From positions 4,696-68,695 of the forward strand of contig JAFQSS010000010.1 of the NCBI GenBank assembly GCA_017409455.1: a stretch of 64,000 nucleotides of DNA. The letters run 5' to 3'. The notes under the pieces were generated by a model. That model searched no databases. It was given only the letters and a program-made list of their open reading frames with translations, and was not told where the DNA came from. The stretch is from Clostridia bacterium (GTDB lineage Bacteria; Bacillota; Clostridia; TANB77; CAG-508). Positions 11,646 to 53,725 of this stretch are shown here, in pieces. Position 1 is the first letter of the stretch. Each line of letters opens with the position of its first letter. The position numbers and the translations under genes are program-made.

Positions 11646-11685
11646 GTGCTCATAGCTCAGCAGGATAGAGCAGTCGCCTCCTAAG
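11646..11685 (+). pseudogene. tRNA-Arg(CCT) 5' part (acceptor, D-arm, 5' anticodon stem and loop), cut off by the ICE
   Basis: GTGCTCATAGCTCAGCAGGATAGAGCAGTCGCCTCCTAAG. The ICE sequence that follows has no T-arm or acceptor complement. Confidence 0.85.
11678..11685. repeat. attL core, 8-bp direct repeat CTCCTAAG
   Basis: Identical octamer at 53682-53689. The two copies bracket the ICE and together restore the anticodon loop. Confidence 0.75.
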
Positions 11686-11764
11686 AATTTCCTAAACATT
11701 AGGTTGAGGACTAGCAAAATCCTTATGAAATAAGGGATGGACAACAATATTGTATAAAAAAATA

Positions 11765-11782
11765 TCGCAAAAATGTCGCGAA
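11765..11782. promoter_or_regulatory. TCGC(A/G)AAAATGTCGCGAA motif, left-arm copy
   Basis: Near-identical copies at 53526-53543 (right arm) and 48211-48227 (internal promoter). Confidence 0.5.
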
Positions 11783-11796
11783 AAACTGTCCCTGTC

Positions 11797-11816
11797 TTTA
11801 AAAAATTCAAACAGTA
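11797..11816. repeat. arm-type repeat TTTAAAAAATTCAAACAGTA (left arm)
   Basis: An identical 20-mer lies at 53589-53608. Shorter AAAAAWTCAAAC-like copies lie nearby at both ends. Confidence 0.65.
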
Positions 11817-11867
11817 TTTAAAAAAATCAAACTCATTTTAGCATTTATATGTTAAAATGAATTAAAT

Positions 11868-11944
11868 GTCCTCGTAGCATAATAGGAGAATGCAGTCGCC
11901 TCCTAAGCGACAGATTGGAGGTTCAAATCCTCTCGGGGACGCCA
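11868..11944 (+). tRNA. tRNA-Arg(CCT), ICE-borne
   Basis: Hand-folded 77-nt cloverleaf: acceptor GTCCTCG/CGGGGAC, anticodon stem GTCGC/GCGAC, loop CTCCTAA, T-arm GGAGG-TTCAAAT-CCTCT, encoded CCA. An extended -10 (TGTTAAAAT) lies at 11850-11858. Confidence 0.85.
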
Positions 11945-12021
11945 TTTTATAGTAATTCGCACAATTCTTTTTATCTATTTTATATAGTATAATGTAGATA
12001 GAAAAGGAGAGTGTATCATAT

Positions 12022-12168
12022 ATGAAAAAGATAAAACTAAAAGTTGATAGCACAGATTATAAAATTATCATAAATGCGTTAGTAGAATTTAGGAATAAGT
12101 TAATTTCAGAAAAAAGAGATACAACTCCTATTGATGATATACTATTGAATTTAGTTGATAAATTATAA
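12022..12168 (+). CDS. small ICE protein (48 aa), paralogue of 32488..32679
   Basis: GGAGAG RBS. MKKIKLKVDSTDYKIIINALVEFRNKLISEKRDTTPIDDILLNLVDKL. It shares the Y..I.INAL..FRN.LI.EKR.T.P.D..LL pattern with the other copy. A terminator follows at 12177-12203. Confidence 0.6.
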   Translation: MKKIKLKVDSTDYKIIINALVEFRNKLISEKRDTTPIDDILLNLVDKL

Positions 12169-12280
12169 ACATATTTGAACTGATTAAATGTCAGTTCTTT
12201 TTTTATGCCAGAAATGGAATACATAGCCATCTTATTTATTTAAGGTGGCTTAAATTGTGAAAGAAAGGAGATGAGAAAGA

Positions 12281-51296: not shown

Positions 51297-51617
51297 GTGG
51301 GGAGAGATGATGTTTATAAAACAATTAAAAATATGACCTTAGAAGAACTTATTTCAATGTTTTGTACCAACAAAGTTGAGGTTGTAGAGAAAATAGAAAA
51401 AGTAGAAATAGAAGATAGTAAAGTCTTTTATACGATAAATGAGTTAATAGAAAAGTATCCATTTTTTACTAGATACAACATAAATAAGGCAATTCAAAAT
51501 GGTGGATTACCTTATTGTTTTATAGGAAGAAAAAGAATGTTTAGCAAAGAAGAAGTAGAAAATTGGTTAGAAAAAGAAACTAAACCTAAAAAAGAAAAAA
51601 TTAAATACGATATTTGA
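51297..51617 (+). CDS. xis: excisionase-type helix-turn-helix protein
   Basis: FYTINELIEKYPFFTRYNINKAIQNGGLPYCFIGRKRMFSKEEVENWL is an excisionase/MerR-type HTH. Lies immediately upstream of int. Confidence 0.75.
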   Translation: MGRDDVYKTIKNMTLEELISMFCTNKVEVVEKIEKVEIEDSKVFYTINELIEKYPFFTRYNINKAIQNGGLPYCFIGRKRMFSKEEVENWLEKETKPKKEKIKYDI

Positions 51618-51631
51618 TTGGAGGAATTAAA

Positions 51632-53386
51632 GTGCAAGAAAAAGTTGAAAAATATATTTATTTTGTTTCAGAGAATAGATACAGAGTTAAATTTTTAAAA
51701 GTAGATAAAGCAAAAAATAAAAGAATAAATTTTAATCAATATATAAATGGTAGTTTAGAAGATGCAATAAAATTAAGAGATGAAAAACTAAAAGAAAATG
51801 GTATTTCATTAAATGATGAAAAAAAGTCAGATGATATATTTGAAGAAAAAGCCCCAACCAAGAAGAAAGAAACAAAACCTAAAAAGGAAAGAAAACCTGC
51901 TGTAAATCAAGCAACTAATAAAGTTGATAAATATATATATGAAATAGAAAAAGGAAAGAAATATAGAATATTTATTAGAAAAGGTGGCTCAAATGGGCAA
52001 AAAGGAGATTATTATTCAGCAGTTTATGAGGGAACATTAGCACAAGCAAGAAAGGAAAGAGATAAAAAACTTGCAGAATTAAAATTAAAAAATGGTAAAG
52101 GCGATAAAGGTAATATAAGATTTGTAGAGTTTGCCAGAATATATTATAAGGAATATGCAGAAAAAGAATTAAGTCCTACTACTGTTACAGGTGGTAAAAC
52201 TACATTAAAAAACTATGTGCTACCAGAAATCGCCAATATGCCATTAAATAAAATAGATGCTTTAACTATACAAAGAATAATAAATAATTTAAAAGAAAGA
52301 GATAAAGAAAGATTAGACAAAAATGGAAATGTAGTTAAGTTATCACCAACAAGTGTGAATAATGTGTATAGATTACTACGAAAAATACTAAATAAGGCGA
52401 TAGCTTGGGATTATATAGAAACTAATCCTGTATTAAAAGTAAAAGCACCGGGAGTAGCAAAAATAGAAAAAGCATCATACAACAGAGATGAGTTAATAGA
52501 GATATTAGATATATTAAAGAAAGAAGATCCTTTAACAGAAACTTTATTTACTATATCTATATGCACAGGAGTTAGACGAGGAGAGTTAGTAGGATTACAT
52601 TTAGAAGATATTGATTTTGAAAATAATATGATAAATGTAAAAAGAGCAGTAGTATGGGACAAAGGAAATCAAAGAATATTAGAAAAAGCAACAAAAACAA
52701 AAGGTAGTGTCAGAGAAGTACCTGTTCCATTATTCTGTATGGAAGTTATTAAAGAATATTTAAAGTTAAGAGAAAGAGTGATATATAATTTTAAAAGAAG
52801 AAATAGAAATTATATACCACCAAGAAACTTATTTTTAAGTAAAACAGGTGGAATAATGTTTCCAGATACACCATCTAGCAAATGGTTAGATTTTAGAAAG
52901 AGAAATCCACAAATTAAAGATGTATCACTACACGGATTAAGACATAGTTATTGTTCAATGCAAATGAATGAGAATCCAAATTTATCACCAGCAGATGTTA
53001 AAAAGTTAATGGGACACTCTCAATTATCTACAACATTTATATATACACACTCAAATGATGATAAGACAGAGGAGGCAATATCAGTATTTGAAAAATATTA
53101 TAATTTCAATGGCGAAAAGAAAGTTAATTTTAATGAAATGTTATCATTATATACAAGAGTAAAATTTACTACCACAACTATAATAGAAGAATTATTAGAT
53201 TTTGTAGTTGATACAGATGATAGTGATGAAAGCAAATATGATGTAATAAAAGATTATATAGATAAAAGATACCCTATATTTAAAAAGATAAATGTATCAG
53301 ATGTTAATATAGAAAATGTATGGGACTGGTTAGAAATGAAAAAGAAACAATATGGTGATGAATTCTTATTATGTCCTATAAAATAA
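51632..53386 (+). CDS. int: tyrosine integrase (Int-Tn916-like) with duplicated N-terminal arm-binding domain and C-terminal extension
   Basis: The GTG at 51632 lies 7 nt after GGAGG. The TTG at 51614 is less likely. Catalytic GVRRGELVGL, HGLRHSYCS, MGHSQLSTTFIYTH. Confidence 0.88.
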   Translation: MQEKVEKYIYFVSENRYRVKFLKVDKAKNKRINFNQYINGSLEDAIKLRDEKLKENGISLNDEKKSDDIFEEKAPTKKKETKPKKERKPAVNQATNKVDKYIYEIEKGKKYRIFIRKGGSNGQKGDYYSAVYEGTLAQARKERDKKLAELKLKNGKGDKGNIRFVEFARIYYKEYAEKELSPTTVTGGKTTLKNYVLPEIANMPLNKIDALTIQRIINNLKERDKERLDKNGNVVKLSPTSVNNVYRLLRKILNKAIAWDYIETNPVLKVKAPGVAKIEKASYNRDELIEILDILKKEDPLTETLFTISICTGVRRGELVGLHLEDIDFENNMINVKRAVVWDKGNQRILEKATKTKGSVREVPVPLFCMEVIKEYLKLRERVIYNFKRRNRNYIPPRNLFLSKTGGIMFPDTPSSKWLDFRKRNPQIKDVSLHGLRHSYCSMQMNENPNLSPADVKKLMGHSQLSTTFIYTHSNDDKTEEAISVFEKYYNFNGEKKVNFNEMLSLYTRVKFTTTTIIEELLDFVVDTDDSDESKYDVIKDYIDKRYPIFKKINVSDVNIENVWDWLEMKKKQYGDEFLLCPIK

Positions 53387-53525
53387 TATTATTAAATTAT
53401 GGTAATTATATTGTAAAAAATAGGAATTATTGCTATAATAAATAACAGATATTTAGTGTTTAGATGGTGGCTCGAACAGTGGGAAAATAGCGAGAAAATC
53501 GTGGACAGAAAAAACAGATAGCAGG

Positions 53526-53543
53526 TCGCGAAAATGTCGCGAA
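53526..53543. promoter_or_regulatory. TCGCGAAAATGTCGCGAA motif, right-arm copy
   Basis: Matches 11765-11782 and 48211-48227. Confidence 0.5.
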
Positions 53544-53588
53544 CTTTATGAAATTTTATTTGAAATAATAAAAAATGTTCAAATTCTA

Positions 53589-53608
53589 TTTAAAAAATTC
53601 AAACAGTA
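53589..53608. repeat. arm-type repeat TTTAAAAAATTCAAACAGTA (right arm)
   Basis: Identical to 11797-11816. Related copies lie at about 53570 and 53645. Confidence 0.65.
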
Positions 53609-53681
53609 AAATCTGCTGAATTTGAAATAAACAAAGGCATTTTTAAAAATTCAAACGCTATTTGAAATTAAACCCGAGTTT

Positions 53682-53689
53682 CTCCTAAG
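53682..53689. repeat. attR core, 8-bp direct repeat CTCCTAAG
   Basis: Identical to 11678-11685. Confidence 0.75.
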
Positions 53690-53725
53690 CGACCGATGGT
53701 GGTTCGAGTCCGCCTGGGCACACCA
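53690..53725 (+). pseudogene. tRNA-Arg(CCT) 3' part (3' anticodon stem, variable loop, T-arm, acceptor, CCA)
   Basis: CGACCGATGGTGGTTCGAGTCCGCCTGGGCACACCA. TGGGCAC pairs with GTGCTCA at 11646. Joined to 11646-11685 it gives a 76-nt cloverleaf. Confidence 0.85.

Follow-up and report, generated by a model that had tools for sequence, protein, structure and literature searches.

Organization of the locus

The stretch of DNA analyzed here (the window) comprises 64,000 nucleotides of the Clostridia bacterium contig JAFQSS010000010.1 (assembly GCA_017409455.1, positions 4,696 to 68,695) and contains an integrative and conjugative element (ICE) inserted in the anticodon loop of a chromosomal tRNA-Arg(CCT) gene. 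All the genes, tRNA halves and recombination sites described below lie on the plus strand. The first 40 nt of the host gene (tRNA positions 1-39; 11646-11685, delimited by alignment with empty sites) are displaced at the left attachment site (attL), and the last 36 nt (tRNA positions 40-76; 53690-53725) at the right one (attR). The attL core at 11678-11685 and its direct-repeat partner, the attR core at 53682-53689, are copies of the octamer CTCCTAAG, which corresponds to anticodon loop positions 32-38 plus G39, and 42,004 bp of ICE DNA lie between the two repeats. The crossover thus falls in the anticodon loop, inside the 8-bp identity formed by positions 32-39. Joined to each other, the two halves yield a 76-nt tRNA-Arg(cct) with seven perfect acceptor pairs, as called by ARAGORN; neither the left nor the right junction alone gives a tRNA with the same program, and the Rfam covariance models (E<=10) detect no tRNA signal at either of them. 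Past the attL core, the sequence lacks a stem complement, a T arm and an acceptor strand. The promoter of the split gene (TTGCAA-17-TATAAT, with TG ahead of the second hexamer; 11601-11629) is intact and is now directed into the ICE.

That promoter points toward a second, complete tRNA-Arg(CCT) gene located within the ICE (11868-11944; 77 nt with an encoded CCA), which was identified by ARAGORN and scores 64.9 bits with the Rfam model RF00005 (gathering score 29). This gene lies 182 nt inside attL and has the anticodon and the orientation of the host target. The octamer CTCCTAAG occurs three times in the 64 kb, namely at the attL core, at the attR core and, starting at 11900, in the anticodon loop of the ICE-borne tRNA, where it is followed by CGACAGATTGG in the 3' half. 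The ICE tRNA and the host gene, as reconstructed over its two halves, have in common the 20-nt anticodon arm GCAGTCGCCTCCTAAGCGAC and differ in the acceptor, D and T arms (23/32 identical positions in the 5' part); the ICE tRNA has an acceptor stem of its own, with seven perfect pairs. Given that it carries a perfect copy of the target, it could also be used as a secondary chromosomal attachment site (attB).

An original prediction, made from the sequence alone, had placed a tRNA-Arg(CCT) gene split between the same two intervals, with CTCCTAAG at 11678 and 53682, behind an intact promoter, and had the joined parts folding as a normal 76-nt tRNA; all these features were recovered as described, as was the lack of a restored gene at the left junction. 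The claim that the host gene is destroyed stands to the extent that the gene is split and is not restored at the junctions. What is not supported is a reading in which this loss goes uncompensated, given the complete tRNA-Arg(CCT) at 11868-11944. That the element is a genuine ICE, as also proposed, is evident from a relaxase, a coupling protein and a VirB4-class ATPase, together with a recombinase, defined ends and an empty site.

With respect to expression, the motif TGtTAAAAT (11850-11858), located 9 nt upstream of the ICE tRNA, is a candidate extended -10 element; a promoter of the element probably drives transcription of the ICE tRNA. The host promoter lies 240 nt upstream, and we found no plus-strand terminator-like site between it and position 11868, so that read-through from this promoter is possible and the integrated ICE tRNA may be transcribed from it as well.

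Attachment-site arms and integrase

The 182-nt segment between the attL core and the ICE tRNA (11686-11867; denoted the P' arm) starts with a second loop-like motif, AATTTCCTAAAC (11686-11697), and further contains a palindrome, TCGCAAAAATGTCGCGAA (11765-11782), and a 20-mer arm repeat (11797-11816), with a degenerate version of this repeat at 11821-11832. The P arm, on the other side of the element (53387-53681), contains the palindrome TCGCGAAAATGTCGCGAA (53526-53543), the 20-mer (53589-53608) and a copy of it with 3 mismatches (53641-53660). The repeats predicted for both arms were found: the 20-mer TTTAAAAAATTCAAACAGTA occurs exactly twice in the 64 kb, at 11797 and 53589, and TCGCRAAAATGTCGCGAA is present at 11765 and 53526, so that an exact 20-mer and an 18-nt palindrome are found in both arms and nowhere else in the window. 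A TCGCGA-N5-TCGCGA palindrome equivalent to that of the window is conserved in the P arm of a clade of related elements with 67% identical integrases.

The P' arm also includes a hairpin, ATCCTTATGAAATAAGGGAT (approximately 11716-11745), that resembles AACCCTTATAAATAAAGGG, a sequence at the extreme left end of three related ICEs (L138, L227 and L235) that have quite different integration modules. It seems to be a conserved feature of the ICE backbone, perhaps a binding site or a terminator.

Adjoining attR are genes for an excisionase-like protein (51297-51617; Pfam HTH_17, and 30.0 bits for TIGR01764 against a cut-off of 28.8) and for a tyrosine integrase (51614-53386), in agreement with the tyrosine-integrase crossover that had been proposed. 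The integrase open reading frame (ORF) spans 590 amino acids (aa; 584 aa as called elsewhere) and contains the Pfam catalytic domain Phage_integrase (PF00589, 1.1e-20) and a SAM-like core-binding domain (PF14659, 4.4e-10); residues 1 to ~170 match no Pfam family. Owing to the length of this ORF, a large serine recombinase was considered as well, and was ruled out by the Pfam assignment to tyrosine recombinases. The catalytic and SAM-like domains, the predicted arm-type repeats on both sides and an excisionase domain above its cut-off are features of lambda-type heterobivalent systems. In a comparison with chains in the PDB, 3nkh ranked first (E 2.3e-10), followed in second to fourth place by 6emy, 6en0 and 6emz (E ~1.5e-8 to 3.8e-8, integrase residues 312-484), which we take to be structures of the integrase of Tn1549, of the Tn916 family. 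Tn1549 is a conjugative element of Firmicutes, and the integrases of the Tn916 family show little target specificity and are not known to act on tRNA genes. The match to these three chains is limited to the catalytic domain, whereas the ICE integrase has ~590 aa, with ~170 N-terminal residues that have no assignment. At least 268 proteins related to this integrase are encoded in public assemblies.

Left ends of related elements

To find the left ends of related ICEs, we collected loci encoding relatives of the ParB protein that is encoded just inside attL, a choice that presupposes no tRNA. The sample includes 109 left ends, of which 80 belong to named genomes and the other 29 to metagenome contigs. 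In seven of these (L151, L164, L176, L179, L183, L209 and L210), ARAGORN detected a plus-strand tRNA-Arg(CCT) upstream of parAB; no other tRNA type is recurrent upstream of parAB in the sample. These same seven left ends (7/109) contain the 5' half of a host tRNA-Arg(CCT) that extends to CTCCTAAG, past which the sequence is no longer that of a tRNA, and at all seven split sites a complete tRNA-Arg(CCT), scoring 58-70 bits, lies 64-85 nt past the core. A split 5' half without an adjoining complete gene was not found among the 109 left ends, and the remaining 102 have no tRNA-Arg at that place (Fisher p ~4e-11, computed on 7/7 vs 0/100). These 102 left ends show integration modules of other kinds (a rumA-like gene used at its 3' end, ends adjoining serine recombinases, or a left-end integrase). 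The association of 7/7 vs 0/102 therefore indicates that the tRNA belongs to the tRNA-Arg-targeting integration module rather than to the conjugation backbone. The closer relatives of the window ParB (71-92% identity) all belong to elements with other integration modules and serve as negative controls.

The seven relatives come from contigs JAGHIE010000001.1, CATKXO010000028.1, JARICA010000003.1, CAZUNU010000167.1, DXGE01000010.1, CAJTCL010000015.1 and NZ_JAYFFH010000002.1, and the hosts named in the records include Oscillospiraceae, Lachnospiraceae, Faecalimonas, Anaerofustis and a Candidatus Eubacterium. The split halves were identified by reading the sequences and with a strict 5'-half filter that required an Arg CCT/CCG loop and was followed by inspection by eye. 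Two other procedures were rejected: joining each candidate 5' half to a synthetic complementary 3' half before the ARAGORN run was too permissive, as three perfect stems pass almost anything, and a structural filter open to any anticodon was noisy until limited to the Arg CCT/CCG loop and combined with inspection by eye.

By eye, without a scan, the ICE tRNAs of L210 and L151 are preceded by promoter-like sequences (TTGACA-17-TAAAAT and TTGACA-17-TTAATA, respectively), and hairpins followed by T-runs were seen downstream of the ICE tRNAs of the relatives. The spacers between core and complete tRNA are 78% identical between L151 and L210, compared to 56% for shuffled controls, and 70% identical between L179 and L183, compared to 53% for shuffled controls and 38% for the upstream flanks. 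Inspection by eye further revealed near-identity in the 5' part between the ICE tRNA of one locus and the chromosomal tRNA of another species (30/31 for L151-ICE and L210-host, 31/32 for L210-ICE and L179-host), and a 32/32 match of the L183/L209-ICE tRNAs to the L209-host tRNA. Such near-identical ICE and foreign chromosomal alleles imply capture or exchange.

Empty sites and other elements at the same site

A 48-mer spanning the junction of the joined host halves was found in more than 120 metagenome contigs, many of which represent related species with flanks 75-82% identical to those of the window (BLAST and alignment). The uninterrupted tRNA thus exists in related species, and its junction equals the concatenated halves, which is the outcome that the original prediction called for. 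The left neighbors of these empty sites (PGM and a PP-loop ATPase) and the right neighbors (a deaminase, a 247-aa protein, the signal recognition particle RNA and dnaX) are the same as in the window. The complete ICE tRNA is missing from the empty sites and hence arrived with the element. In a search for an empty site of the same species using the exact flanking proteins, every contig either carries the ICE or stops at the junction. Sample ERZ28654015 is one of those in which this ICE occurs.

In another sample of the same species (L004/L007, positions 1-560; ERZ28019037 k141_756648), with flanks 100% identical to those of the window, a different element adjoins the same host tRNA 3' half, with the sequence ...aatagtgcCCTCCTAAG followed by cgaccg (equivalent to 53682-53725 of the window). 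This element has arm repeats of its own (tttcccca... and aaactatttt...), and its C-terminal ORF is unrelated. Hence, the site is a hotspot, and the anticodon loop of this tRNA hosts more than one type of element.

Right ends of related elements

The right ends of relatives were examined through the integrase genes. The P0060 integrase (71% identical to that of the window) belongs to an element that ends with ...CTCCTAAG, followed by two different tRNA 3' halves (L211 and L212), and four contexts (L219 to L222) were recorded for the P0022 integrase (78% identical). The presence of an identical integrase beside different host 3' halves implies that one element uses differing host tRNA-Arg genes; the host genes used in this way differ in the anticodon stem, the T arm and the acceptor. 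No intact tRNA is present at attR in any relative examined. In the P0078 clade (67% identical; L213-L218), the element ends with ...CTCCGAAG, ~270-310 nt past the integrase stop, followed by the 3' half of a tRNA-Arg(CCG), in three or four host contexts. One of the contigs with the P0078 integrase is ERZ24773376 BRZ_HQ__NODE_131 (137,632 nt). Because CTCCGAAG is the loop of tRNA-Arg(CCG), this lineage has switched isoacceptor, with a core change from CTCCTAAG to CTCCGAAG that amounts to a single base.

In L219 and L220 (positions 4090-4160), 12 extra nucleotides, AGTTTCCTAAAC, are located between CTCCTAAG and two different host 3' ends, and these match the first 12 nt of the window spacer (11686-11697). 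This observation suggests a second crossover core, TTTCCTAAAC, located 11 nt to the right of the first and fitting T32-type loops; no intact tRNA-Arg(CCT) of the T32 type was found in the examined loci, which had been selected by the C32 pattern. Near-identical integrases (97-99%) are encoded in further assemblies.

A proposed model for integration with replacement of the target gene

Taken together, these findings make it likely that the 42,004-bp ICE entered the anticodon loop so that both host halves are dead, and that the complete, element-borne tRNA-Arg(CCU) takes the place of the lost gene. We propose that the integrase (Int) recombines the attachment site of the circular element (attP), composed of the P arm, CTCCTAAG and the P' arm, with the anticodon loop, with the arm repeats assisting, and that the excisionase (Xis) would assist excision. 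As attP would contain no tRNA fragment, integration would leave the host gene as two inert pieces, and the complete, independently folded ICE tRNA, located after the short P' arm, would supply tRNA-Arg(CCU); the gene is thus destroyed and its function most probably replaced. The circular junction expected under this model is P arm-CTCCTAAG-AATTTCCTAAAC, reading ...GAGTTTCTCCTAAGAATTTCCTAAAC....

Between the element and its target, identity is seen only in the 8 bp of the loop, a sequence that tRNA-Arg(CCU) genes have conserved. The acceptor strands of the host and ICE tRNAs differ at 7/8 sites, and a hybrid of the host 5' part and the ICE 3' part would have 2 mismatches in the 7 acceptor pairs in the window. 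When the whole gene is supplied, no match of the acceptor or D arm between the host and an element-borne 3' half is required, and one element could therefore use hosts with differing tRNA-Arg genes. An advantage in host range is a likely consequence of whole-gene carriage. We infer a selective role for the ICE tRNA, as well as present-day excision and transfer of the element.

Several points weigh against this model. Every contig of this species recognized by the exact host proteins of the left flank contains the ICE, and because the same-species contigs carry the ICE or another element, the empty site is deduced from related species (75-82% flank identity). The two ends of the architecture are seen together in the ICE of the window only, and when the lists of integrase and ParB matches were linked for the relatives, no shared contig was found. 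The excised attP junction, for the CCT or the CCG clade, was not found in the scanned viral contigs. A promoter scan gave the ICE tRNA of the window no canonical -35/-10 pair, only TGtTAAAAT, and the expression, aminoacylation and fitness role of this tRNA are predictions from sequence. Moreover, cells that read AGG with tRNA-Arg(UCU) may be able to dispense with tRNA-Arg(CCU), so that replacement is perhaps not strictly needed, and any other copies of the host tRNA-Arg(CCU) gene would fall outside the 64-kb view.

One alternative is that the tRNA gene was destroyed without compensation, with the host tolerating the loss of a dispensable tRNA-Arg(CCU) and the nearby complete tRNA being incidental cargo. 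Although tRNA-Arg(CCU) is non-essential in some bacteria and the junctions indeed do not restore a tRNA, we regard this explanation as improbable, given that the supposed cargo has the anticodon and orientation of the target and lies 64-182 nt from the crossover at 8/8 split sites, that it is absent from the 102 related left ends with other integration modules, and that all copies are full-scoring tRNAs although their sequences diverge.

A further alternative, which appears quite improbable, is that two conventional elements are arranged in tandem, as at the Anabaena tRNA-Cys locus. In this case, the gene at 11868-11944 would be a regenerated hybrid, the left end of the ICE would be at 11900, and the spacer would be the remnant of an upstream element that provided the 5' part, with the ICE providing the 3' part; the circle junction would then be P-arm-CTCCTAAG-CGACAGATT..., reading ...CTCCTAAGCGACAGATTGG.... 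The layout is the same as in Anabaena (5' fragment, insert, complete tRNA, element, 3' fragment; bioRxiv 10.64898/2025.12.09.693284), and CTCCTAAG at 11900 could act as a junction. The spacers, however, are gene-free and only 64-182 nt long, and that of the window contains the exact 20-mer and palindrome of the integrase-proximal arm. Furthermore, the spacers are homologous between ICEs of different hosts, whereas the upstream host DNA is not, and L219 and L220 each contain, in one continuous stretch of DNA, the P arm, the core and the 12 nt that match the start of the window spacer. The arm repeats, the homology across hosts and this linkage indicate that the spacer is the P' arm of the ICE itself. 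In addition, all eight complete tRNAs have full-length scores (58-70 bits), with seven perfect acceptor pairs in the window copy, and no remnant of an upstream element is present at the empty sites.

It is just as improbable that the arrangement is a fossil of rearrangements in a decayed, immobile island rather than a working strategy. In favor of such a fossil, the circular junction was not found in the viral contigs, a second integrase with a block of cargo suggests accretion, and the element and the host have the same GC content, but the genes for conjugation, excision and integration are all full-length ORFs, the near-identical integrases recur in further assemblies, and the identical integrases of related clades occur in two to four host contexts each, which indicates recent mobility.

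Beyond the replacement of the target gene by the ICE tRNA, one may speculate, with considerable doubt, that the integrase lineage constitutes a modular "anticodon-loop cassette" consisting of the integrase, Xis, attP and a whole tRNA, with a retargetable core, two cores in some members, and exchange of tRNAs with hosts. Such a cassette would be retargeted between isoacceptors by the change of CTCCTAAG to CTCCGAAG, presumably accompanied by exchange of the carried tRNA for the corresponding one; the two alternative cores 11 nt apart, CTCCTAAG and TTTCCTAAAC, would capture C32- or T32-type loops; and the ICEs would overwrite the host tRNA-Arg allele with a foreign one, the carried tRNA becoming a landing pad for further elements.

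Relation to known systems

Genomic islands that target tRNA genes (tDNAs) normally restore the gene at the junction by carrying a tRNA fragment, and island-finding software has been built on this property (PMC4383910). The element described here has the targeting features of this class and lacks the restoration that defines it. As in the islands that use anticodon-loop "site A" in the Islander collection, there is a tyrosine integrase, a crossover centered on the loop, a short direct repeat and displaced tRNA fragments (PMC4383910); unlike in those islands, attP contains the 8-bp loop only, both host halves are dead, and a separate complete tRNA lies 182 nt inside. In a search of the Islander type, the ICE tRNA would probably be mistaken for the regenerated target, which would put the left end 222 nt off.

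The 37-kb excision element in a tRNA-Cys gene of Anabaena variabilis carries a partial tRNA copy, so that integration creates a functional hybrid, and the 5' fragment at that locus belongs to a second, 10-kb element (bioRxiv 10.64898/2025.12.09.693284). The tyrosine recombinase, the anticodon-loop crossover (7-bp in Anabaena) and the layout of the locus are shared with our case, in which, by contrast, the insert (64-182 nt) is an arm of the ICE itself and the element carries the complete gene in its entirety. The tRNA-Thr(GGU) locus of Caldiarchaeum subterraneum is also similar in that it includes a 5' fragment, a recombinase-encoding insert and a second complete tRNA with the same anticodon (PMC3293823), but this is a single archaeal locus with a 1.8-kb transposon-like insert and intron-containing tRNAs, without conjugation machinery or evidence of a family-wide design. 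We found no account of whole-tRNA replacement by an ICE in the literature searched (full text, with most subscription journals outside it), and surveys of Faecalibacterium and Streptococcus ICEs do not mention it.

Judging by the sequences, destruction of the target combined with whole-gene replacement appears to be a consistent feature of an ICE integration module in gut Firmicutes. This ICE lineage would thus consistently break the rule of restoration at the junction by killing the target and bringing a complete substitute, which would explain how a single element copes with hosts in which the tRNA-Arg genes are alike in the loop and nowhere else. It would also mean that tRNA alleles acquired horizontally silently take the place of the native ones in gut Firmicutes, and that fragment-based methods probably set the limits of such islands wrongly or score them as conventional. 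An integration module that is compact and complements itself, with a conserved 8-bp target as its sole visible sequence requirement, could serve for broad-host-range chromosomal insertion in Clostridia that are hard to engineer.

Gene content of the element

The ICE has a GC content of 28.1%, equal to that of its flanks. Its left part, downstream of the ICE tRNA, encodes a 48-aa ORF that is conserved at the left end of related ICEs (12022-12168) and is followed by a terminator-like hairpin (12177-12197), the partition proteins ParA (12281-13111) and ParB (13062-14009), a sortase-anchored surface adhesin with SpaA and thioester domains (14882-18184) and a sortase (18159-18824). These are followed by the gene for a 2389-aa helicase protein of the SNF2 family (19626-26795), of a type commonly seen in large ICEs of Firmicutes. 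The C-terminus of this protein shows weak similarity to the helicase parts of DISARM DrmD and of a phospholipase-D-like anti-phage protein; the scores against these anti-phage families are far under the family cut-offs.

The genes for DNA processing and conjugation encode a primase-like DUF3991/Toprim protein (27213-28172), a NikA-like accessory protein (29144-29485), a MobA/VirD2-type relaxase (29509-30849), a type IV coupling protein of the VirD4/TraG type (32676-34478; T4SS-DNA_transf), a PrgI-family protein (37180-37551), a VirB4-like ATPase (37526-39859) and a CHAP-domain cell-wall hydrolase (39875-41419).

A second tyrosine recombinase (363 aa; 41689-42780), preceded by an AT-rich region with repeats at 41420-41680, marks the start of an accessory or cargo region that extends to ~48.1 kb. 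Downstream of this recombinase, the region (41689-48108) encodes a Listeria-Bacteroides repeat protein, a 702-aa protein without a family match, helix-turn-helix regulators and a response-regulator-like protein. The entire region is possibly a module that became nested in the ICE or was accreted by it.

Near the right end of the ICE, a pemK RNA motif (Rfam RF02913; 49352-49432) is located upstream of a PemK/MazF toxin gene (49768-50139). In five relatives, the pemK motif is found near the left end, ~0.7-2 kb downstream of the ICE tRNA (positions 4967-5024 in L151, 5011-5068 in L176, 1557-1615 in L179, 5022-5079 in L183 and 4967-5024 in L210).

Sequences flanking the split gene

Immediately 3' of the host tRNA, there is an insert of 100 nt (53727-53826) bounded by a direct repeat of the last 23 nt of the tRNA, CGAGTCCGCCTGGGCACACCAAT (approximately 53704-53726 and 53804-53826). 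It includes a stretch complementary to the T arm (53744-53753 to 53703-53712), a Shine-Dalgarno sequence with ATG GTC TAG after it, and a hairpin, AAAATGGTCTAGTAGACCATTTT, and matches no Rfam family at the gathering score. The insert is present in 22/117 metagenome loci with an intact tRNA, with ~94% identity compared to ~79% for the flanks, and is precisely missing from other loci (L091 and L057); possible identities are a miniature integrated element, a remnant and a conserved RNA. On the other side of the ICE, the interval from the PP-loop ATPase gene to the tRNA promoter contains two copies of AAAAGGGACCGGGTCT (11519-11560), and the Logan contig L002 ends exactly at these repeats.

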